Assembly: GCA_040772045.1 (NCBI GenBank)
Contig: JAXGYV010000004.1
Coordinates: 65,432 to 129,431 of the forward strand
Direction of reading: 5' to 3'
From: Thermoleophilia bacterium
GTDB lineage: Bacteria; Actinomycetota; Thermoleophilia; UBA2241
DNA length: 64,000 nucleotides
Shown: piece after piece, positions 9,915-25,126 of the stretch
Numbering within the stretch: position 1 is the stretch's first letter
Layout: every line of letters begins with the position of its first letter
Position numbers and translations under genes: made by a program
Notes under the pieces: model-generated
The model's input: the letters and a program-made list of their open reading frames with translations, nothing else
Databases searched by the model: none
Told to the model about the DNA's origin: nothing

Positions 9915-12392
9915 TCAGCCGGCCTCGATCTCCTCGTCTGTTGCTCCCGACTCGGAGACGACGTGGAGGGCGACGGCGGACACCTTGTCGCTCTCGCGGA
10001 GATTCATCACCTTAACGCCCTGCGTGGCTCTCCCGTAGCGGCCGATGCCATCGACGCGCATCTTGATGACCACGCCATCGCGGCTCTGGATGGCGATCTC
10101 GTGGTTGTCGCGCACCACGCGCACCCCGGCCAGAGAGCCCTTTCGATCGGTAAGGGTGACCGTGCGCACGCCCAAGCCGCCCCTTCCCTGCACCGGATAC
10201 TGGTCCAGCCTCGTGCGCTTGCCGAAGCCGTTCTCGGTAACGACGAGCAGATCTGAGTCGTCGCGAGCCACATCTGTGGCGATAACCTCATCGTCTTTGC
10301 GCAGGCGCATCCCGCGGACTCCGCTGGTGTTGCGTCCCGTGGGCCGCACATCTGCTTCGTGGAAGCGGATCGCCTGACCGAGACGGCTGACCATGATGAT
10401 GTCGTCTTCGCCAGAGCAGTGCCGCACCTGAATGAGCTCGTCGTCGGGTCGCACGTCGACGGCGATAATGCCATCGGCCTTCAGCGGGGTGTTGTACGAG
10501 CCGAAGAGCGTCTTTTTCACCATACCGCGGCGCGTGGCGAAGATGAGATACTTTCCCTCGGCCACGTCGAAGTTCCGGGTGCGGATGATCGCGCGCACCG
10601 TCTCGTCGCTGCGCAGCGGCAACAAGTTGGCCAGGTGCTTGCCCCGAGCGTTCCGGCCGGCGAGCGGAAGCTCGTGTGCTTTCAGTCGGTAGACCTTGCC
10701 GATGCTCGTGAAGAACAAGACGTACTCGTGGGTCGAGGCGAAGAAGAAGTGCTCGACCTCGTCTTCTTCCTTGAGCTCCATGCCGGTGACGCCTACACCA
10801 CCGCGCTTCTGCTGACGGTACGTGGTAACGGGAAGCCGCTTCACGTAGCCCGTCTTGGTGATGGTGATGGCCATCTGTTCGTCGGCGATGAGATCCTCGA
10901 TGTCTAGTTCGCCCTCGTCGGGGATGATCTGCGTGCGCCGGTCGTCGTTGTAAAGCCGCTTAACCTCGAGCAGCTCGTCCTTGATGACTTGGTAGATAGC
11001 GTGCTCGTCACCGAGCAGCCTGCGCAGCTCCTGGATACGTACCAGTAGCCCTTGGTGTTCTTCGTGCACCTTGTGACGCTCGAGCTGCGTGAGCCGCTGG
11101 AGGCGGAGGTCGAGGATGGCCTGCGCCTGTGGCCTGGTGAGCTCGAAGGTGTCCATGAGCGACTCGCGGGCGGCGTCGGGCTCTCTCGCCTTCCGGATGA
11201 TGCTGATGACTTGATCGAGGTTGTCCAGAGCCACCAGCAGGCCCTCGAGGATGTGCGCCCTGGTCTCGGCTTTATCGAGCTCGAACTTACTGCGGCGGAC
11301 GATGACGTCCTTCTGAAACGCCACGTACGCCTTGATCATCTCCGGCAACGTGAGCGTGCGCGGCACCCCGCCGACCAGCGCGATGTTGATGACGCCGAAC
11401 GTGGTCTGCATCTGGGTGTGCTTGTACAGCTTGTTCAGCACTACCTTCGGCACGGCCTCGCGTTTGAGCTCGATGACCACGCGCATGCCGTTACGGTCGC
11501 TCTCATTCCGCAGATCGCTGGCCTCGGGCAGCTTCTTCTGCTTGACGAGGTCCACGATCTGCTCGATGAGCGCCGCACGGTTCACCTGGTAGGGAAGCTC
11601 GGTTACTACGATGGCACTGCGATTGCCCTTGAGCTGCTCAGTGTGGGCCTTGGCGCGGACGCGGATGCGTCCGCGCCCCGTGCGATACGCCTCTTTGATG
11701 CCGGCGGTGCCGAGGATGAGGCCGCCGGTGGGGAAGTCCGGCCCCTTGATGTGCTGCATGAGGTCGTCCGCCGACGCGTCGGGCTGATCGATGCTGGCCA
11801 CGATGGCGTCTACCACCTCGCCCAGATTGTGCGGGGGGATGTTGGTGGCCATGCCCACAGCGATACCGTTGGACCCGTTGACCAGGAGGTTCGGCATGCG
11901 CGCCGGCAGGACCGTGGGCTCCCGGCGCGTCTCGTCGTAGTTGGGGACCCAGTCCACGGTGTTGGCGTCGATGTCGCGCAGCATCTCCACGGCGATGCGG
12001 CTGAAGCGCGCCTCCGTGTAGCGCATGGCGGCCGGCGAGTCGCCCTCGACAGAACCGAAGTTCCCCTGGCCGTCGACCAGCGGGTAGCGCATGTTGAAGT
12101 CTTGCGCCATGCGCACCAGTGTTGGATAGATGACCGCCTCGCCGTGCGGGTGATAGTTACCCGAGGTGTCGCCCGCGATCTTGGCGCACTTACGGTGCTG
12201 CTTATTCGGCGCCAGCCCCAGATCGTTCATCGCCACCAGAATGCGCCGTTGGCTCGGCTTGAGGCCGTCGCGCACGTCTGGCAGCGCACGGTCGACGATG
12301 ACGCTCATCGCATAGTCGATGAACGATGAGCGCATCTCCTCCTCGAGCTCGATGGGCTCGATCCTGCCTTCTAGCGTCTGAACCTGATCCAT
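9915..12392 (-). CDS. gyrA: DNA gyrase subunit A
   Basis: Canonical GyrA N-terminus including the active-site region, followed by C-terminal beta-pinwheel repeats. 825 aa. Confidence 0.95.
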
Positions 12393-12404: not shown

Positions 12405-14822
<2,418 letters not shown>

Positions 14823-15005: not shown

Positions 15006-15302
15006 TCAGCGAGGGCGTCTGCCTGAGACAAACCGCAGGCGCTCTACGGGGCAATCCGGGTCGGCGGCGTGCATCTTGGCCAGGAACTCACCGCTCAGAT
15101 AGGTGAGCTCCTGCGCCCAGACCGAGGATTCACATTCGAGGACGAGCGTGCCCCGTGCGAGCCGGACCGGCGTGGCGGCCGCGGTCACGTGCGCTCCCGC
15201 GGCGGCCGACCACGCGGCGTACGCGCGGGCCTCCTCGCCCTCGCGCAGCCTCTCGGCCGTACGCTTCAGCACGTCGCCCAGGCGTACGAACTCGGCCGTC
15301 AT
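15006..15302 (-). CDS. DUF721 family protein (recF-gyrB-associated)
   Basis: Small conserved ORF between recF and gyrB. The likely start is an internal ATG (MTAEF...) overlapping the recF stop (ATGA). The track ORF extends to 15404 but overlaps recF. Confidence 0.55.
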   Translation of the reverse strand: MTAEFVRLGDVLKRTAERLREGEEARAYAAWSAAAGAHVTAAATPVRLARGTLVLECESSVWAQELTYLSGEFLAKMHAADPDCPVERLRFVSGRRPR

Positions 15303-16408
15303 ACCGCACCCTCCGGAGTATTCAAATCGATGACCAGCGCGCGGGCGAGCTCCCCGGAAGTGAAGTACATCGTCGTGGTGGTCGTCACCAGCACCTGGCC
15401 GCACTGCAGAAGCAGTTCCACCAGGAGGCGTCTTCGCCGCTCGTCAAGTTCGCTCATCACGTCGTCGAGGAGCAGCGGCCCAGTCTTGTCGAAGACCTCG
15501 GCGGCCACGTGCCGCTCGGCCAGGAGGAGGGCCAGCACCGCCGCTCGCTGTTCCCCCTGGGAGCCGAAAGGCCGCAGGTCACGACCTAGGGGGCTCGCGC
15601 CGGCCCCGCCCACCTCCAGGAAGCGCAGTTCATCGCGGTGCGGCCCAAGCGAGGTTGTACCGCGAACGATCTCCAGCGCTCGCCGCTGCCGTAGCGCCGC
15701 AAGGTAGGCCTGCACATCGTGCTCGTACTCCGCAAAACCAGACTGGAGCTCGAGATCGAACGTGCCTCCGCACGGCGTGAGGGCGGTGGCATGCTCTGCA
15801 AAGATCGGTCGGAGATATTCCACGAAATCTCTGCGCCGCCTACCCAAGTCGATACCGGCCTGAGCCACCTGCTTGTCCCACGGGTCGAGTGTGCGTTCCG
15901 CCGTGCCGCCACGCACGCGCACCAACTGAGCGTTTCGCTGTCGCAGCGCTAGGTGGAGATCCGTGCTGGCGGCTGCGTAGCTAGCATCCAGCGCGGCGGC
16001 AAACGCGTCAAGGTGAGCGCGGCGACGGGCCGGACTGCCTTTCACCAGAAGCAAACTCTCTGGTACGAAGATGAATACGGCTGCGCGGCGCCGCAATTCC
16101 TCGGCGGTGGCATCGCCTGCGCGACTAACTCGAATACGTCGGCCAGAGCCCGGCGCGAAGTACACCTGGGTACGGCTCCCGTCGTCGAGCTGCGCCTCGG
16201 CTCGCACGTAGCTTGCCCCCCACCGGACGAGCTTTTCGTCGCGGCTCGTCCGTGGCGACGCCGCCCGGAGGGCGTAGAACACCCCCTCGAGTAAGTTCGT
16301 CTTGCCAGCCGCATTCTCACCGACCACGATGTTGAGCCCGGGCGAAAAGACGAACCGGGCTTTGTGGTAGGAGCGGAAGTTCGTCAGTCCTATCTCGGCG
16401 ACGTGCAT
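15299..16408 (-). CDS. recF: DNA replication and repair protein RecF
   Basis: N-terminal Walker A (GENAAGKTNLLEG) and ABC/SMC-like RecF architecture. Conserved dnaN-recF-gyrB synteny. Confidence 0.9.
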   Translation of the reverse strand: MHVAEIGLTNFRSYHKARFVFSPGLNIVVGENAAGKTNLLEGVFYALRAASPRTSRDEKLVRWGASYVRAEAQLDDGSRTQVYFAPGSGRRIRVSRAGDATAEELRRRAAVFIFVPESLLLVKGSPARRRAHLDAFAAALDASYAAASTDLHLALRQRNAQLVRVRGGTAERTLDPWDKQVAQAGIDLGRRRRDFVEYLRPIFAEHATALTPCGGTFDLELQSGFAEYEHDVQAYLAALRQRRALEIVRGTTSLGPHRDELRFLEVGGAGASPLGRDLRPFGSQGEQRAAVLALLLAERHVAAEVFDKTGPLLLDDVMSELDERRRRLLVELLLQCGQVLVTTTTTMYFTSGELARALVIDLNTPEGAV

Positions 16409-16601: not shown

Positions 16602-17714
16602 TCAGGTGCTCAGGCGAATCGGCATGATCAGGTACACGAAATCGGCCGCCGCCTCATCTACCCCTGTGATAAGTCCGGGCCGAAGAGGACTGATCAGTTT
16701 GAGGGAGATCTTGCTCCCCTCCACGGCCTCCACCCCGTCGATAAGGTACGCGTGGTTGAATCCGATCTCGAAATCCTCACCCTCGTACGCGACATCGATC
16801 TGCTCTTCCGCCTGGCCGACATCTTGCGTAATCGCCCGCATGGTTAGCGATCCGGCGGAGAACCGCAGGCGAAGCGGAGCGTTTTTCTGAGCGAGTAGTC
16901 CAACCCGGCGGGCGACAGCGAGGAACGACTCCTTCTCCAATTCAAGCTCGTGCTCATACGCGTCTGGGAGCAGCTGCTTGTAATTCGGGAAAGCGCCATC
17001 GATGAGCCGCGTAGCGAGCACGACCTCGCCGAACCCAAAAACCGCCTGATTTTCAGTCACGGCAACGTCAACCGCATCGCGATCGCCCGCCGCAGCCAGC
17101 CGAGCGACCTCTCCCAGCGCCTTTACGGGCACGATCGCTTGCATCTCTATCTCTGGCCCGCCCTCCAGCTGCGACTGCTTCACAGCTAAACGATAACTAT
17201 CAGTCGCCACCATCTTCAGCGAGCCTCCACCCAGCACAACTAACACACCGGTGAGAATCGGGCGCGTCTCATCCCTCGAAGCGGCTCGCGCCACCTTGCT
17301 GAGGGTCTCGACGAGAGGGTCGGCGGCCACGCGGAAACTCGCAGAGAGATCGAATGCCGATGTCTGTGGAAAATCGCTAGCCGCCCACGAGTTCAGCTCG
17401 AACATCGCTTTCCCCGCGACCACCTGCACGGTGCCACCGCCACCACTCTCCACGGTAACCTCGTCCCCCGACAGGTTACGTACGATGTCGGAGAACAGTC
17501 GCGCCGGAACAACCACGTCACCCGGCTCATCGATAGTGCTCGTCAGCGTCGCCCTTACAGAGATCTCCATATCGGTCGCATACAAGTTCAAACGCTCTTC
17601 GGAGGCCTGCAGGAGGATGCCCGAGAGCACCGGTAGTGCACTCCGCGCCGATACGGCACGTGCAAGCACAGCGAGTCTGTCAACGAGGGTGCCACGGTCA
17701 CACCGGAGTCTCAT
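16602..17714 (-). CDS. dnaN: DNA polymerase III beta sliding clamp
   Basis: 370 aa three-domain clamp. Sits immediately downstream of dnaA and oriC. Confidence 0.9.
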   Translation of the reverse strand: MRLRCDRGTLVDRLAVLARAVSARSALPVLSGILLQASEERLNLYATDMEISVRATLTSTIDEPGDVVVPARLFSDIVRNLSGDEVTVESGGGGTVQVVAGKAMFELNSWAASDFPQTSAFDLSASFRVAADPLVETLSKVARAASRDETRPILTGVLVVLGGGSLKMVATDSYRLAVKQSQLEGGPEIEMQAIVPVKALGEVARLAAAGDRDAVDVAVTENQAVFGFGEVVLATRLIDGAFPNYKQLLPDAYEHELELEKESFLAVARRVGLLAQKNAPLRLRFSAGSLTMRAITQDVGQAEEQIDVAYEGEDFEIGFNHAYLIDGVEAVEGSKISLKLISPLRPGLITGVDEAAADFVYLIMPIRLST

Positions 17715-17979
17715 GCCAGCTCCTTATTTCTATGAAGAAAGTTCCTTTGTATCTGCTTCATCGTCATTATCATCTGCTGGAAGCTGTGTAGAACTGCGGG
17801 GGTGCGTGCAGAATGCGTAGTCCTCCGCAGTTCATCGTCCTGTGGACGCCGTGTGGATAAGTGTGAACGTTTACCATCCGCCAGGCGACCACACACAGCA
17901 TAGTCGGTTAAAGGGTGGGTTGTGAATCGCTCATCCTCACCATTCCACAGTCACGCTCACAACCGGTCGGGTCGCGGGC
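17715..17979. promoter_or_regulatory. oriC candidate (dnaA-dnaN intergenic): DnaA boxes plus AT-rich DNA unwinding element
   Basis: A perfect DnaA box TGTGGATAA (17852-17860) is flanked by the near-boxes TGTGGACGC, TGTGAACGT, TGTGAATCG, ATTCCACAG and TTTCACACG. AT-rich stretch at 17721-17775 (ttatttctatgaagaaagttcctttgtatctgcttcatcgtcattatcatc) in an otherwise ~68% GC genome. Confidence 0.7.
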
Positions 17980-19437
17980 CTAGCGGGTGGCTTTCACACG
18001 GTCAGTTACAGTCTGTACGAGCTCGTGGAGCTGGCGGTCGTGACCATCCTTGAGGAGACGCTCGATCTTTTGGATGGCGTAGAGAACAGTAGTGTGGTGA
18101 CGACCACCGAAGCGCTCGCCGATTTGAGGAAGAGACGCATCGGTGAGCTCACGCGAGATATACATGGCGACTTGGCGCGCGTATGCCAGGTCTTGTGTAC
18201 GACGATCGCCGCGGAGGTCGCTGATGTGACAGCCGAATTGCCGGGCGACCTCTGCCTGCACCGCGTCGACTGTAACGGGCATTCTGAACGCGTGAGGGAG
18301 GATATCCTTGAGGGCCTCCTGCGCGAGCGGCAGCGTAATTTCCCCTCCCCGGACGGCTGCGAAGCTGACCACCCGTGTGAGCGCCCCGTGGAGTTCACGG
18401 ATATTAGACGTAACGCGTGCGGCGATGTACTCGAGCACCTCACCCTCGCGGATCGGCAGGCCATCCCATTTGACCTGTCGCCGCAGGATTGCGATGCGTG
18501 TCTCTAGGTCGGGCCGGCCAATGTCGACGACGACACCAGCGCCGAAGCGAGAGCGGAGCCGCTCCTCCAATGCCTCCAGCTCCCGAGGAGGTCTGTCCGA
18601 CGTGATCACGATCTGCTTGCCGGCTTCGTACAGCGAGTTGAAGGTATGAAAGAACTCGACCTGTGTCTGCTGCTTCTCAGCGAGGAACTGAACATCGTCC
18701 ACGAGGAGGATGTCGTTGTCGCGATAAGCTTGTTTGAACCCCTCGATGCGCCCCTTGTCGGTAAGCGCGTTGATGAAGTCGTCGGTGAAGCGTTCCACGG
18801 TGACGTACTTGAACTGCAACCGTGGATGACTCGCCAGTGCCGCATGAGCGATAGCTTGCACGAGGTGCGTCTTCCCAAGGCCTGTATCGGCATAGATGAA
18901 GACGGGGTTGTACGCGGTTGCGGGCGACTCGGCGACGCTATTAGCTACCGCGGCGGCGTACTCATTGTGCGGCCCGATCACGAAACGCGCGAACGTATAC
19001 CGGGGATTAAGCTCCTGCGTCGCCTTCGCCACGGGCGCGGAGGGCTCCGCGACCCCTGGAGCTGTAGTTTTCGCTGGTGATACTGGCGCCGTGGACTGCT
19101 GGGCTTCGTCTGGGGGAGAACTTTCGGCGGGTTTCTGCGCCTCAGCCCGATCATCTACCACGATACATACGGTGATCGGCGTGGAGAGAACAGTCGTCAA
19201 CGCGTTCGTGAGGAGAGGTCCGAACCGCTTCTCCACCCAGTCACGCATGAACTCACTCGCTACACCGAGGGTGAAGGTATCGTTCGAGAGCGCAACCGCG
19301 ACGGAAGGAGCGAAGAAGAGACGATACGTCGCCTCGTTCACGTGCTGCTGGAGGTAAACCCGGGCCTCATCCCAGATGCGTGTTAGGTGGTCGTCGATCG
19401 CGTGGCTCCTCTGCGTCGAACCGGATGCGAATGGCAT
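17980..19437 (-). CDS. dnaA: chromosomal replication initiator protein DnaA
   Basis: AAA+ Walker A/B and a C-terminal DnaA-box-binding domain. 485 aa with an extended, proline/alanine-rich domain II. Confidence 0.95.
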   Translation of the reverse strand: MPFASGSTQRSHAIDDHLTRIWDEARVYLQQHVNEATYRLFFAPSVAVALSNDTFTLGVASEFMRDWVEKRFGPLLTNALTTVLSTPITVCIVVDDRAEAQKPAESSPPDEAQQSTAPVSPAKTTAPGVAEPSAPVAKATQELNPRYTFARFVIGPHNEYAAAVANSVAESPATAYNPVFIYADTGLGKTHLVQAIAHAALASHPRLQFKYVTVERFTDDFINALTDKGRIEGFKQAYRDNDILLVDDVQFLAEKQQTQVEFFHTFNSLYEAGKQIVITSDRPPRELEALEERLRSRFGAGVVVDIGRPDLETRIAILRRQVKWDGLPIREGEVLEYIAARVTSNIRELHGALTRVVSFAAVRGGEITLPLAQEALKDILPHAFRMPVTVDAVQAEVARQFGCHISDLRGDRRTQDLAYARQVAMYISRELTDASLPQIGERFGGRHHTTVLYAIQKIERLLKDGHDRQLHELVQTVTDRVKATR

Positions 19438-20267
19438 TACAGGATGGATTCCAGGAGAGAAGCGCCCCCTTCAGTAAGCACCCGTTTCCCGTCGCCGACG
19501 GGACGAACCAGGCCGGCTCGTTCCAGTATACCGAGTTCACGAAAAGCCGTAGCTGGAGCGATTTCCAACTCCTTGGCTAGGGGTGTTGGCCCAGCGGCGC
19601 CGAGCTCCATGAGCAAGACGAGCATGCGCTTTTGCCGGGTGGTAAGACGTACCGCGGGCTCGGCCGGAGTTGAGGGAGGACGAGCCTCACCCGTCTTGTG
19701 GGGCAGCCGTATGGTGAGCACGGTACCGCCGCCCAGGTTGTCCTCGATGGTGAGCACGCCGCGCAGGAACGCCAGCGACTCCTGGGCGATCGGCAGCCCG
19801 GACCCCACGCCACGAATCCAGTGCCGCTGAGCGGCGGTCGCTGTAGTGAAGCCGGGCTGGATGGCCCTGGCTTTGTCGGCGATGCCAGGGCCGTGATCCG
19901 ATATCCGCAAGACCTGTCCGCCGTCTAGGACCGTGACTACCACATCCTGAAATGAAGCGTGAATGAGATTCTCGATGAGCTCTCGAATGACCGTGTATGG
20001 GACCTGTCCGCCCTGCTCCCGGCAGTGCCGGTACGTCTCTGTGGCGAGTGAGCCGATAAGCGCGGGCAAGTCGGCCTCTTCCACGGTGATTACCCGCGGC
20101 GGGCTGGTCAGCGTGTCGTAGACGGCGATTCGTGGTGCCCCCGGTCCGCGGAGCGGGCCCTCTCCCTCCGGCGCGCTGGGCCCGTTGTCGCACGCACGCT
20201 CGTCGGCGCAGCTGGGCGCCGGCGCGTCGCTGTGACCGGCGAGAAGCCTCTCGAGGAAGGACTCCAT
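19437..20267 (-). CDS. GHKL (histidine-kinase-like) ATPase domain fused to a C-terminal winged helix-turn-helix domain; translationally coupled to dnaA
   Basis: HATPase_c motifs: N-box ELIENLIHA, G1 DHGPGI, G2 GSGLPI. C-terminal MarR/ArsR-like wHTH (TTRQKRMLVLLMELG...LAKELEIAPATAFRELGILERAGLV). Its stop codon overlaps the dnaA start (TAATG). Confidence 0.7.
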   Translation of the reverse strand: MESFLERLLAGHSDAPAPSCADERACDNGPSAPEGEGPLRGPGAPRIAVYDTLTSPPRVITVEEADLPALIGSLATETYRHCREQGGQVPYTVIRELIENLIHASFQDVVVTVLDGGQVLRISDHGPGIADKARAIQPGFTTATAAQRHWIRGVGSGLPIAQESLAFLRGVLTIEDNLGGGTVLTIRLPHKTGEARPPSTPAEPAVRLTTRQKRMLVLLMELGAAGPTPLAKELEIAPATAFRELGILERAGLVRPVGDGKRVLTEGGASLLESIL

Positions 20268-20354
20268 GGGCCGCCGAGTATAGCAGAGGCACTACGCCGA
20301 CCGAAAAGGCGCTCGGAAGCGATGAAACGCTAGCGAGCGGCAGAATCGCCGCCG

Positions 20355-20700
20355 TTCTCCACAAGGTTTTCGACAACTGTGGAGAAAGGCCCGAGGCCGC
20401 TGATCGAATTCCCGGTAAATGCGCGGCTTGTGGAAACTGGGGTTTCACGCCACATGAGAGCCAGTTGGTGGACGCAGTTCTCTCAGGGTACCCCGGCGGT
20501 GGGCTTTCTGCGGCCACTTGGTTCGTGGCGGCAGAGCAAACCTGCTGCATAGCGTGCATGAACGCAGAGAATCTCGCGGGTCGAGCAGTGTCAAGAGCTT
20601 GTTGAGGACCGAGTCGCTTATCCACGTGACCCACGAGCCTGGATGCGCGCAAAAAGGAAGATATCCACACTTTCCACAGATGACCGTGGAGAGATGCTGC
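20355..20700. promoter_or_regulatory. second DnaA-box cluster in the divergent promoter region upstream of the GHKL-wHTH/dnaA operon
   Basis: TTCTCCACA (20355-63) and TGTGGAGAA (20378-86) form a perfect inverted pair. Further boxes: TGTGGAAAC (20429-37), TTATCCACG (20618-26), ATATCCACA (20661-69), TTTCCACAG (20671-79) and CGTGGAGAG (20686-94). Confidence 0.55.
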
Positions 20701-20764
20701 GTCACACGAAACAGGTGTGGGACGTGCCCTGTTGGGCGAAGAGGTACACTCTTTCTGCTGCGGA

Positions 20765-20885
20765 GCTCCCGAACGAGGGGCTGAGAAGGCGCTTCCTGGT
20801 GCCGACGCACAGGACCTGACCACCCCCATGGGTGGCGGCGTCACGGCGACGCTGCTGGGTAATGCCAGCGAAGGGAGAGAGACTG
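20765..20885 (+). ncRNA. TPP (thiamine pyrophosphate) riboswitch candidate
   Basis: Conserved THI-element blocks appear in the expected order: GGGGCUGAGA ... ACCUGA ... CUGGGUAAUGCCAGCGAAGGGAG. It sits immediately 5' of the thiT-like transporter / thiamine pyrophosphokinase genes. An unusual ~35-nt insertion forming two small hairpins lies between ACCUGA and the GGGUAAUGCC block. Confidence 0.65.
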
Positions 20886-20887
20886 AG

Positions 20888-21565
20888 ATGTCACAGGTGT
20901 CCGTTTGTTCCCCGAGCTGCGCGCGTGCCTCGCGCGCACACACACAAATGAGCATGAACCCCGCGCGATGGGGCGCGCGGGGCCTGGCGGAGGTCGCGGT
21001 GGCCATCGCCCTGGCCGCCGCGCTCGGGTTCGTGAAGCCGTTCACCATGCCACAAGGTGGGTCTGTGAGCCTCGAGATGCTCCCGCTCGTCTTCGTGGCC
21101 ATACGCGTCGGCGTGGGCCCGGCGCTGGTGGCGGGGGGGCTCTATGGCTTCGTGCAGCTCGTCCTGCCGGGTGCATACATTTACCACCCCGCGCAGGTCG
21201 CTCTCGACTACCCGCTGGCGTACATGGCGATCGCCGCCGCCGGCCTGCTCCATGTGAGGGGGTGGCGCGCCCTCGCCGCCTCCGTGGCGCTCGCCGCCAC
21301 AGGGCGGCTGGTATTTCACTTTCTGTCGGGCATCATTTTCTTCGCCACCTACGCGCGCGACCTGGGTTGGAACCCATGGCTCTACTCCCTCTCGTACAAC
21401 GTGCTCTACCTCGTGCCCGAGGCTGCTATTACCGCAGTGATCCTCTGGCCGCTGCTGAAAGCGTACGACGCAGCCTTTCCCGGCGGCACCTCGGCCGGTG
21501 TTCTCGAGGGAGAGCGGAGTGCGGTAGCCGGTGAGAACCATCACCGGCCGGACTGCTGTGGCTGA
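20888..21565 (+). CDS. thiamine transporter ThiT-like (ECF-type S component / YuaJ family) membrane protein
   Basis: About 200 aa multi-TM protein downstream of the TPP riboswitch. An alternative in-frame ATG lies at 20948. The N-terminal part of track ORF 20717.. overlaps the riboswitch and is not coding. Confidence 0.65.
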   Translation: MSQVSVCSPSCARASRAHTQMSMNPARWGARGLAEVAVAIALAAALGFVKPFTMPQGGSVSLEMLPLVFVAIRVGVGPALVAGGLYGFVQLVLPGAYIYHPAQVALDYPLAYMAIAAAGLLHVRGWRALAASVALAATGRLVFHFLSGIIFFATYARDLGWNPWLYSLSYNVLYLVPEAAITAVILWPLLKAYDAAFPGGTSAGVLEGERSAVAGENHHRPDCCG

Positions 21566-22256
21566 GGAGGTTAGGGCCCGCGCCGCCGTCGCGGCCGTCT
21601 TCCTCAACGGGGAGTATGAGCCCGAGCCGGCCTTCTATCGCCAGGCGGCTGAGGGCGCGAGCATGTTGATCGGCGCGGACGGCGGGGCGGCGTGGATGAT
21701 TAAGCTAGGGCTGCTGCCGTCGGTCGTTGTCGGCGACTTCGATTCACTGTCGCCGCTGGCGCTGGAGGAGTTGCAGGCGAAAGGTGTGAGGAGCGTGCGC
21801 CATCCGGTCCGCAAGGACCGCACCGACGCCGAGCTTGCGGTCGGTGAGGCCTTACGCATGGGTGCCGGCGCCATCGATGTGTTCGGCGGGCTTGGCGCGG
21901 GCTTCGACTATGCGGTGGGGCACGTGGCGCTGCTGCGCGGTCTGGCGCGGCGTCGCGTGCCGGCCCGGCTGCTGGAGCCCGCCCTCACGTTCATGGTCAT
22001 GCCAGCGCGCAGCCGCCTCTCCGTAAGCGCGTCGCCCGGATCTCGCTTCTCGCTCCAGCCGCTCACGCAGCGAGCTGTGGTAAGCCTGAGGGGTTTCGAC
22101 TACGAGCTTCGGGCGGCGCGGCTGCGCGCCGACGCGTGCCGCGGACTAGGGAACATGGTGACCCGCCACGATGCGGAGGTCCTGGTGCACGCGGGCCTAG
22201 CGGCCGTGCATGTGGGTGCTCCCCTCCAGCCTTTCTGGTCGGGCATGACGGCGTAA
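21531..22256 (+). CDS. thiamine pyrophosphokinase
   Basis: TPK motifs GADGGA and GDFDS. Co-oriented with the thiT-like gene and overlaps it. Confidence 0.8.
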   Translation: MRTITGRTAVAEEVRARAAVAAVFLNGEYEPEPAFYRQAAEGASMLIGADGGAAWMIKLGLLPSVVVGDFDSLSPLALEELQAKGVRSVRHPVRKDRTDAELAVGEALRMGAGAIDVFGGLGAGFDYAVGHVALLRGLARRRVPARLLEPALTFMVMPARSRLSVSASPGSRFSLQPLTQRAVVSLRGFDYELRAARLRADACRGLGNMVTRHDAEVLVHAGLAAVHVGAPLQPFWSGMTA

Positions 22257-22602: not shown

Positions 22603-23910
22603 ATGCTCTCGCGACAGGTGGGTGCGGGGGCGGAGAGCGCGACAACGGCCGAAGACACGAGAGCAACACAGCCGGGGGTGCCAGTGCTGATCAGTATCAA
22701 CGAAGCGCTCGACGCAGTCTTGGGCGCGGTGGCGACCGGCGGCGTGGAATCCGTGCCGCTCCTCGACGCTCTCGGGCGGACGCTTGCGGAAGACGTCGTC
22801 GCCCCCGACGACGTGCCACCGTTCTCCAACTCCGCGATGGATGGCTTCGCGCTGCGCGTCGCCGACCAGACCGGGCGACGTTCCCTGCGGTTGGTAGCGG
22901 AGATCCCCGCGGGGCACGTGTTCCCTGAGGAGCTGCCGCCGGGCGGTGTGGCGCGCATCATGACGGGAGCTCCTCTGCCGCCAGGCGCCGACGCCGTGGT
23001 CGAAGTGGAGGCCACGACCGTGTGTGGCGAGGAGGTGGAGATCGAGAACCCGGTGGAAAGAGGGCGGAATGTGCGCTACGTCGGCGAAGACGTGCGCCGC
23101 GGCAGTACCCTGCTGACGGCGGGGGACGCTATCGAGGCCGCGCACCTCGGAGTGCTCGCCTCCGCCGGCGTGGCGCGGGTGCGGGTGGCTCGCCGCCCGT
23201 CGGTGGCCATCCTCTCCACGGGCAGCGAGCTGGTTCCGATCGACCAGCGGCCTGGGCCAGGGCAGATCCGCAACTCGAACTCCTACACCGCCTACGGTCA
23301 GGCTAGAGAGGCAGGAGCAGCACCCGTGCTGCTCGGCATCGCTCGCGACGATCGCGAGGAGACGCGAGAGCAACTACGTCGGGCGCTGCGGGAGGACGTG
23401 GTGATCACCTCCGGGGGCGTGTCTGTCGGCGACTACGACTTTGTGAAGGCGGTCCAAGAGGAGCTGGGCGTAGAACGCCGGTTCTGGGGCGTGCGGACCA
23501 AGCCTGGCAAGCCGCTCGTGTTCGGCGTTCGCGACAGAACGCTGGTCTTCGGCGTACCCGGTAACCCGGTTGCGGCCATGGTCTCCTTTGAGGTGTACAT
23601 TCGGCCCGCGCTCCTGCGCATGCAGGGGCGCCGGGATGTCTGGAGGCCGTGGGTGCTGGCGACCTCGGCCGAGCCCGTGAAGCACGGCAGCGACCGCGCT
23701 GAACTGCGTCGCTGTCGCGTGTGGCAGACGGCGGATGGGCGATGGTGCTGGACGACGACGGGCCCGCAGGGGTCAGGAATTCTCAGCTCGATGGCGCTGG
23801 CTGACGGCCTTGCGCTGGTTGCGGTGGACCATCCCGGTGGGCCGACAGGGGAGCGTATGCCAGTGATGCTGCTCCGGGGGGCCGCCGCGGAGCGACCGCC
23901 GTACCCCTGA
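22603..23910 (+). CDS. moeA: molybdopterin molybdenumtransferase MoeA
   Basis: MoeA N-domain (SAMDGFA), MoCF-biosynthesis domain and MoeA C-domain. 435 aa. Confidence 0.85.
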   Translation: MLSRQVGAGAESATTAEDTRATQPGVPVLISINEALDAVLGAVATGGVESVPLLDALGRTLAEDVVAPDDVPPFSNSAMDGFALRVADQTGRRSLRLVAEIPAGHVFPEELPPGGVARIMTGAPLPPGADAVVEVEATTVCGEEVEIENPVERGRNVRYVGEDVRRGSTLLTAGDAIEAAHLGVLASAGVARVRVARRPSVAILSTGSELVPIDQRPGPGQIRNSNSYTAYGQAREAGAAPVLLGIARDDREETREQLRRALREDVVITSGGVSVGDYDFVKAVQEELGVERRFWGVRTKPGKPLVFGVRDRTLVFGVPGNPVAAMVSFEVYIRPALLRMQGRRDVWRPWVLATSAEPVKHGSDRAELRRCRVWQTADGRWCWTTTGPQGSGILSSMALADGLALVAVDHPGGPTGERMPVMLLRGAAAERPPYP

Positions 23911-23918
23911 GCAGGGGC

Positions 23919-24599
23919 TCAGCGGAAGGCATAGTCGCTGAGCCGCGCCCAAACGACGAGCCGTTGTTTGGCGCTGTACGGTGGGTGACAAGTAGTGAGA
24001 ACCAGGTCGTACCCGCGATCGTGAAGCACGCTCGTGTCAGTTGGGCGAGTCACCGTTTTCTTAGCTACGCGGTAGGTAAAGGTCGCGTAGGGTGTAACGA
24101 GTACCAGCTGGTCGCCGGGCCGCAGGCGGTCGAGATTGCGGAAGGGCGCGCCGTAGGTGGTCCGATGACCAGCGATGGCAAACGGCTGCCCTTGTCCCGG
24201 TAGTGGGGTATTGGCATAGTGCACCGGGCCGCTGCGCAGCAGCGTCTGGTCCGGGTCCGCGGCCGCGCCTCGTGCTCTGCCCTGGAGTACCACGCTGTTG
24301 AGTCCGATGCGCTTGTTCCGCAGGCGACCGATGGGCTGGCCGCTGCGGAGACGCCGCGCGAAGCGGTTCGCCAGCGAGGCGATGCGAGTGTACGGGTCGT
24401 CTGCCGCCGGCGATGGCGACTGCCGCCGGAGCGCGCGCAAGAATGCCTGCTCCGACTGGCGATAGGTCTCTCCAAGCCGAGCTTGCTGGACCTCCGCGTA
24501 GCCGGCCGACCAGAGGGGGTAAGCGAGCACAATGCCACCGGCGATAATCAAGCAGCTCGAGAGCTGGCGCACCAGCCGATGTCGCGTCATGCGTTGCAT
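23919..24599 (-). CDS. sortase family transpeptidase (class E-like)
   Basis: N-terminal TM anchor and the catalytic TLxTC motif (LVLTTCHP). The likely start is the internal ATG (MQRMTRHRL...), giving ~226 aa. The track ORF extends further to 24812. Confidence 0.7.
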   Translation of the reverse strand: MQRMTRHRLVRQLSSCLIIAGGIVLAYPLWSAGYAEVQQARLGETYRQSEQAFLRALRRQSPSPAADDPYTRIASLANRFARRLRSGQPIGRLRNKRIGLNSVVLQGRARGAAADPDQTLLRSGPVHYANTPLPGQGQPFAIAGHRTTYGAPFRNLDRLRPGDQLVLVTPYATFTYRVAKKTVTRPTDTSVLHDRGYDLVLTTCHPPYSAKQRLVVWARLSDYAFR

Positions 24600-24643
24600 A
24601 TGCCCATGGTACACTGGGCGGCCGGGGTTCCGAGGAGGTATGA

Positions 24644-25126
24644 GTGCGGTCCTGTAGCGACGTCCACAACTACCTGATGGAGCAGGACGTGCCACACGAG
24701 GTTCTCCACCTCCCGGCCCTCGCCAGGACGGCGCGGGCGGCATCCGAGCTCTTAGCGGTGCCGCTGGCCGATGTCGTGAAGACGCTGGTCTTCCTCCTCG
24801 ACGACAAACCAACGCTGGTCCTGATCGCTGGAGACCAGGTCGCCGACGCGAAGCGGCTCGCCGCCGTAACGGGTGCGCTCGAGGTCGCCCAGGTGCGCGG
24901 CAAGCAGGTGTTCGATATCACGGGGTACCGAGCGGGAGCGGTCCCCCCCTGCGGTCTGGCTACGACGTTGCCGGCGATCGCCGACGCGCGCATCTTCCTC
25001 CGCGATGTGGTGTACTGCGGCGGCGGTGCCACAGCGACCATGCTGAAGCTGAGGAGTAGCGATCTGCGACACCTTCTGCGGCCCGCAGTGGCCGACATCG
25101 CCACGATGAAGACTGAGCGCACCTAG
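24644..25126 (+). CDS. YbaK/EbsC-type aminoacyl-tRNA deacylase domain protein
   Basis: 160 aa with the YbaK/ProX deacylase fold pattern (conserved GGG...K region). Confidence 0.75.
   Translation: MRSCSDVHNYLMEQDVPHEVLHLPALARTARAASELLAVPLADVVKTLVFLLDDKPTLVLIAGDQVADAKRLAAVTGALEVAQVRGKQVFDITGYRAGAVPPCGLATTLPAIADARIFLRDVVYCGGGATATMLKLRSSDLRHLLRPAVADIATMKTERT

Follow-up and report, generated by a model that had tools for sequence, protein, structure and literature searches.

A GHKL ATPase and winged-helix gene heading the dnaA operon, a candidate regulator of replication initiation in Thermoleophilia and other lineages

The 64-kb window analyzed here, that is, the whole stretch of DNA at positions 65432-129431 of contig C4, comes from a Thermoleophilia genome of 1.92 Mb (25 contigs, about 66% GC, 94.6% complete) and holds a chromosomal origin region in which the first gene of the dnaA operon encodes a 276-amino-acid protein that joins a GHKL ATPase domain to a MarR-type winged helix-turn-helix (HTH), a domain that binds DNA sequence-specifically. 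This gene, which we call ghkl (19437..20267, minus strand), shares the orientation of dnaA, to which it is tightly linked, and lies between dnaA and the main cluster of DnaA boxes, an arrangement found in more than 100 genomes. We tentatively propose, with a confidence just short of even, that its product is a lineage-specific regulator of replication initiation, made with DnaA and acting as an ATP-gated DNA binder at the origin region.

The initial annotation of this DNA had described such a gene and quoted its ATPase motifs, and this description is borne out by the open reading frame (ORF), by Pfam, by an AlphaFold2 (AF2) model and by conservation across those genomes. A mis-annotated ORF is ruled out by the same conservation together with the invariance of the catalytic motifs. 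The ORF starts at a conserved Met and encodes an N-terminal segment, followed by the GHKL ATPase domain (Bergerat fold) and then by the C-terminal MarR-type winged HTH. HATPase_c of Pfam matches residues 91-191 (2e-12), within which the N-box (ELIENLIHA), G1 (DHGPGI) and G2 (GSGLPI) motifs can be recognized. Aligning 40 diverse homologs with 35-64% identity (alignment A2), we found the N-box Asn100 with E96, E99, H103 and A104, the G1 residues Asp124, Gly126 and Gly128, the G2 residues Gly153, Gly155 and Gly157, and Gly181 in 'EDNLxxGTV' to be invariant, and the C-terminal winged HTH to be kept, with its recognition motif 'STAYRDL' and its wing 'GKR'. More distant members have the same core, with varied C-terminal HTH labels (IclR, TrmB, ArsR, DtxR-like) and, in some, inserts. 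The gene is single-copy, with no paralog elsewhere in this genome. A 643-residue metagenome protein (P0136) that was considered as a GHKL-DnaA fusion was rejected as a frameshifted read-through gene call or assembly artefact.

The AF2 model, built on the A2 alignment (mean predicted local distance difference test score, pLDDT, 86.9; predicted template-modeling score, pTM, 0.61), starts with a short conserved helix, which in the Thermoleophilia subfamily reads MESFLxRLL, and continues with a flexible linker and a beta-hairpin with helices. In structure searches, the GHKL domain (residues 36-190) matched best to DIP2311 (3LMM), a structural-genomics protein of Corynebacterium diphtheriae, with a Z of 15.3 over 151 residues, and matched histidine-kinase catalytic and ATP-binding (CA) domains as well; for DIP2311, unlike ghkl, no MarR-type C-terminus or oriC location is indicated. 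Residues 204-276 matched the DNA-binding domains of the MarR family (MarR, MepR and Hpr; Z 13-14), whose members share this winged-HTH fold but carry a ligand-sensing dimerization domain where ghkl has its GHKL ATPase. Profile searches of the Protein Data Bank (PDB) placed histidine-kinase CA domains on top, with SpoIIAB at an E-value of 3e-5, and for the C-terminus returned ArsR/SmtB/MarR-type metal regulators. Among the profile families that the initial annotation had named, HATPase_c (the histidine-kinase type) was the only ATPase profile found, the RsbW-type HATPase_c_2 was not called by Pfam, and at the C-terminus MarR and HTH_20, as well as HVO_A0261_N, gave sub-threshold matches only. 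The NCBIfam matches were limited to generic histidine-kinase, MutL and SpoIIAB models, below their curated cut-offs.

Although its ATPase domain resembles theirs, the ghkl protein differs from sensor histidine kinases in having no dimerization and histidine phosphotransfer (DHp) domain with its phosphorylatable His: neither a HisKA match in Pfam nor a DHp hairpin in the AF2 model was found, and the protein therefore performs no histidine phosphotransfer. A GHKL domain without DHp is also what anti-sigma factor kinases have, and this likeness, together with the weak SpoIIAB profile hidden Markov model (HMM) match, raises a second explanation, in which the protein is a Ser/Thr kinase of the RsbW/SpoIIAB/CapK kind that phosphorylates a partner, perhaps DnaA or a STAS protein, and its winged HTH mainly tethers it to origin DNA. 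CapK provides a precedent, being a GHKL kinase that phosphorylates a winged-HTH repressor, CapS, on its STAS domain, and CapK and CapS regulate anti-phage immune operons in response to ssDNA (PMC13373217). The parallel with ghkl would lie in a GHKL ATPase or kinase that controls a MarR/ArsR-like winged HTH by ATP-dependent chemistry, encoded next to the regulated operon; but CapK and CapS are two proteins, whereas ghkl is a single chain, without STAS, that adjoins dnaA at oriC and not defense genes. RsbW and SpoIIAB, for their part, have no DNA-binding domain, and work by partner-switching with sigma factors and STAS anti-anti-sigma proteins. Genes for such partners do not accompany ghkl: no STAS-domain or sigma genes were found near it in the window or at the loci L067, L070 and L072. 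RsbW is the more distant in both sequence and structure, DIP2311 and the CA domains of histidine kinases being nearer, and HATPase_c_2 is not called. The comparison with RsbW/SpoIIAB that the initial annotation had suggested leaves the shared Bergerat fold without DHp and the weak SpoIIAB match. On balance we regard the kinase explanation as unlikely.

The location of ghkl was compared across genomes at increasing evolutionary distance. Within the same family (f1), the protein is present in 24 of 24 relatives, at 63-71% identity, and its gene lies directly upstream of dnaA in all 25 genomes. The place where rpmH would be is taken, in every locus of this family, by thiT, divergently oriented upstream of ghkl, and rpmH is 168 kb to 1.25 Mb away. 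In the genome studied here, contig C7 carries rpmH and rnpA together with yidD-yidC-jag, well away from dnaA; loss of rpmH and rnpA from the genome is thus ruled out, and the absence read by the initial annotation reflects a move in this lineage. Its statement that ghkl has replaced rpmH/rnpA holds for the locus of this family only, as elsewhere ghkl is inserted between rpmH and dnaA. This is the case in seven genomes of two sister families of the same class (f2 and f4), where rnpA-rpmH and ghkl-dnaA point away from each other across an intergenic region. Three further families (f3, f5 and f7) have the classic rpmH/dnaA junction without ghkl, and one (f6) has neither rpmH nor ghkl within 1.5 kb of dnaA. 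Given its presence in f1, f2 and f4 and its absence from these four families, the insertion of ghkl between dnaA and the origin region therefore took place in only a part of the class.

On a wider scale, searching representatives clustered at 50% identity with HMMER gave 446 relatives of the ghkl protein at E ≤1e-10, and contigs of distant members (47-54% identity) read yidC-yidD-(rnpA)-rpmH / ghkl-dnaA-dnaN. When the distribution was scanned with each GTDB species represented by a single genome, 80 loci were obtained; in all 80, ghkl is the gene next upstream of dnaA, and past the box cluster come rpmH/rnpA (or thiT) in divergent orientation. These loci span Thermoleophilia, Coriobacteriia, Actinomycetes, Ca. 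Hakubella, Ca. Sysuimicrobiota (Armatimonadetes CSP1-3), Eubacteriales/Clostridia and one Betaproteobacteria metagenome-assembled genome (MAG), the Coriobacteriia carriers being Eggerthellaceae that include Slackia, Gordonibacter, Eggerthella sp. and Raoultibacter. Whether ghkl always adjoins dnaA, which the initial annotation had left as a question, is thus answered positively in the family (25/25), in the seven sister-family genomes and in the diverse set (80/80). We regard ghkl as an ancient gene.

For the scan loci, the ghkl protein and DnaA gave quick maximum-likelihood trees that are broadly congruent, which is consistent with co-inheritance of a dnaA module. In the DnaA tree, some Bacillota and Betaproteobacteria sequences are nested among actinobacterial ones, and these could be either misbinned origin contigs or products of horizontal co-transfer of the whole dnaA module; the count of phyla beyond Actinomycetota and Ca. 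Sysuimicrobiota therefore needs care. The MAG loci labeled Bacillota or Betaproteobacteria that fall within actinobacterial clades in both trees are L120, L122, L128, L130, L131, L142, L134 and L139, and DnaA is near-identical between L134 ('Betaproteobacteria') and L139 ('Bacillota'). At a further locus, L070, from a MAG labeled Clostridia, the order is mnmE-jag-yidC-yidD-rnpA-rpmH / ghkl-dnaA-dnaN-S4(yaaA)-recF, which is Firmicutes-like and suggests that genuine Bacillota carriers of ghkl exist; Clostridia are probably among the carriers.

We scored DnaA-box-like 9-mers as TTWTNCACA with at most one mismatch. The 449-bp intergenic region between ghkl and thiT (20268..20716) contains seven of them, starting at 20355(+), 20367(+), 20378(-), 20429(-), 20618(+), 20661(+) and 20670(+), and constitutes the main origin DnaA-box cluster. 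This agrees with the cluster of at least seven boxes that the initial annotation had placed upstream of ghkl, as does the inverted pair GCCGTTCTCCACA / TGTGGAGAAAGGC (also written TTCTCCACA / TGTGGAGAA; 20351..20390), with its 14-bp spacer, which is conserved across same-family loci as TTCCACAG-N14-CTGTGGA. No other 450-bp window of the genome contains five or more boxes, the genome mean being 0.11 per 450 bp compared with seven here; a chance origin of the cluster is ruled out by this density, the highest in the genome, and by its conservation in relatives, and the concern that similar 9-mers might be equally dense genome-wide is dispelled. Among 20 same-family loci, five to eight boxes lie upstream of ghkl, and zero to three, with an AT-rich stretch, between dnaA and dnaN. 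In 77 diverse genomes the mean number of boxes per 500 bp was 6.1 upstream of ghkl, 3.3 downstream of dnaA and 0.71 in a coding control, and 97% of these genomes have at least three boxes in the 500 bp upstream of ghkl.

On the other side of dnaA, the intergenic region with dnaN (17715..17979) contains two boxes, TTATCCACA at 17852, which is perfect, and TTCTACACA at 17785. It also contains, at 17720-17779, a 60-mer whose AT content (63%, versus 34% in the window) is the highest in the 5-kb origin area and which is likely the DNA unwinding element. The initial annotation had put the canonical box cluster here as well as the unwinding element; the latter part is probably right, whereas the main cluster is the one upstream of ghkl. 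With box clusters on both sides of dnaA and an AT-rich element, the features of a bipartite oriC are present, and the origin looks bipartite, with its main box cluster upstream of ghkl-dnaA, an unwinding-element subregion downstream of dnaA, and ghkl in between.

The main box cluster region (20268-20716) is probably also the promoter of ghkl-dnaA. In the upstream regions of family f1, a conserved -10-like 'TAtAcT' is located some 15 bp ahead of the ATG of ghkl (about 20280-20295), and a very short 5' leader is therefore suggested. A candidate palindrome, TGCAAA-N5-TTTTCA, occurs in 7 of the 20 family upstream regions, far above genome background.

At the other end of the gene, the ghkl stop (TAA) and the dnaA start (ATG) overlap as TAATG (19435..19439, minus strand) in this genome, as the initial annotation had reported, and only in this genome: the two genes are separated by 10-130 bp in relatives. 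The co-oriented, tightly spaced arrangement makes co-transcription with dnaA probable, as had been proposed; translational coupling and production at a 1:1 ratio with DnaA, proposed along with it, do not carry over, as the overlap is not conserved.

From these features we infer a sequence of events by which the ghkl protein could affect initiation. The two genes would be transcribed together from a promoter inside the main DnaA-box cluster, and binding or hydrolysis of ATP by the GHKL domain would switch the state of the protein, most likely through ATP-dependent dimerization as in other GHKL clamps, with a kinase step being possible. This switch would govern DNA binding by the winged HTH in the origin region, close to the DnaA boxes and to the promoter of ghkl-dnaA, and that binding would in turn tune dnaA transcription, the access of DnaA to oriC, or both. 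ATP-driven dimerization is a common GHKL switch, as in MutL, GyrB and MORC, and MarR-type domains are dimeric when they bind DNA; an ATP-set dimer at oriC or the dnaA promoter would therefore be a natural mechanism.

A stronger version of the proposal, in which the ghkl protein is a second ATP-switched origin protein beside DnaA that, depending on ATP, binds either the DnaA filament or the box cluster, clamping or remodeling origin DNA and so promoting or restraining initiation, appears doubtful to us, though not far-fetched. A predicted complex of DnaA (alignment A4) with the ghkl protein (alignment A2) scored an ipSAE of 0.10 (mark 0.32), which speaks neither for nor against binding.

The same promoter-proximal features would also suit a narrower role, in which the protein is an autoregulator of the ghkl-dnaA promoter only, setting the DnaA level in response to ATP/ADP or another energy signal, with no part in unwinding. 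MarR-type domains are classic autoregulators, and ghkl adjoins its own promoter region, with the conserved -10-like element and, in part of the family, the candidate palindrome; but this candidate operator is not conserved in the present genome, and the data at hand fit a protein acting at the origin just as well. We judge regulation of the promoter alone to be distinctly improbable.

A further explanation detaches ghkl from replication altogether, making it a transcription factor of another pathway, such as stress or metabolism, that is kept near oriC by gene dosage or by hitchhiking with the dnaA region. The oriC neighbors rpmH, rnpA, yidC and thiT have no replication role, and the mixed winged-HTH types of the distant homologs (IclR, ArsR, TrmB and DtxR) are those of ordinary one-component regulators, yet the position of ghkl is exact across classes and phyla, with the box cluster on one side and dnaA, co-oriented and only a tight spacer away, on the other, and this genome has a single copy of the gene. 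We therefore consider an unrelated regulator improbable, and favor a replication-linked role because of the rigid position, the single copy and the DNA-binding domain.

Several observations nevertheless weigh against a regulator of initiation and keep our confidence short of even. Four families of the same class (f3, f5, f6 and f7) do without ghkl, which is therefore not required for initiation in general. Position alone is weak functional evidence, since rpmH, rnpA, yidC and jag, none of which has a replication role, likewise keep a fixed place next to oriC. The conservation of the N-box and G-boxes fits a kinase with another substrate equally well. Finally, no consistent operator motif for the winged HTH was found in the upstream regions, the palindrome TGCAAA-N5-TTTTCA being absent from this genome and confined to the 7 of 20 relatives.

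Regulators of DnaA and of the origin are, as a kind, already known, and what is new here is the architecture and the placement. Proteins that modulate DnaA or dnaA transcription near oriC, such as DiaA, Hda, SeqA, YabA, SirA, Soj, HobA, CtrA and PrpR, offer a possible functional analogy, CtrA being a two-component-type regulator that binds the origin and PrpR a protein that binds the rpmH-dnaA region of M. tuberculosis. PDB searches revealed no fold or sequence shared between the ghkl protein and known regulators of DnaA or initiation, and we know of no initiation regulator whose gene belongs to the dnaA operon and separates dnaA from the box cluster. In the literature, we found no description of the ghkl family, as the initial annotation had surmised, nor of any dnaA-operon gene in that position.

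It is unusual for one chain to contain both a GHKL ATP switch and a MarR-type domain for DNA binding. With such a product, and with its place and orientation next to dnaA, ghkl is a strong candidate for controlling the start of chromosome copying in soil and gut bacteria of the Actinomycetota and at least one other phylum. To our knowledge, control of initiation outside the E. coli, B. subtilis and Caulobacter models is largely uncharted, and Actinomycetota lack DiaA, SeqA, Hda-type and YabA-type regulators. Because several classes, from at least two phyla, have ghkl in the dnaA operon, initiation control in these bacteria becomes directly testable. If the protein does regulate initiation, it would represent a new lineage-specific form of cell-cycle control, and in the Coriobacteriia of the gut (Eggerthella, Slackia and Gordonibacter) it might serve as a target; if it acts as an origin co-factor beside DnaA, it would do so in lineages, Actinomycetota among them, that are without the classic initiation regulators of E. 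coli and of B. subtilis.

The remainder of the origin cluster in the window is that of a classic actinobacterial chromosome, all on the minus strand: gyrA (9915-12392), gyrB (12405-14813), a DciA-like (DUF721 helicase-operator) ORF (15006-15404), recF (15299-16408), dnaN, encoding the beta clamp (16602..17714; three Pfam DNA_pol3_beta domains), and dnaA itself, of 485 amino acids (17980..19437; Bac_DnaA 4.5e-65, DnaA_N and Bac_DnaA_C). The DciA ORF, between recF and gyrB, matches the position of Rv0004 in Mycobacterium. GC skew changes sign near 18000. Divergent from ghkl, on the plus strand, is the thiT/YuaJ thiamine transporter gene (20717..21565; Pfam Thia_YuaJ 4.7e-42), beside which lies a thiamine pyrophosphokinase gene that is likewise divergent from the ghkl-dnaA operon (20717-22256 for the two). 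Further along, near the origin region, are genes for MoeA, of molybdopterin biosynthesis, and a sortase (22603-24812 in the window).

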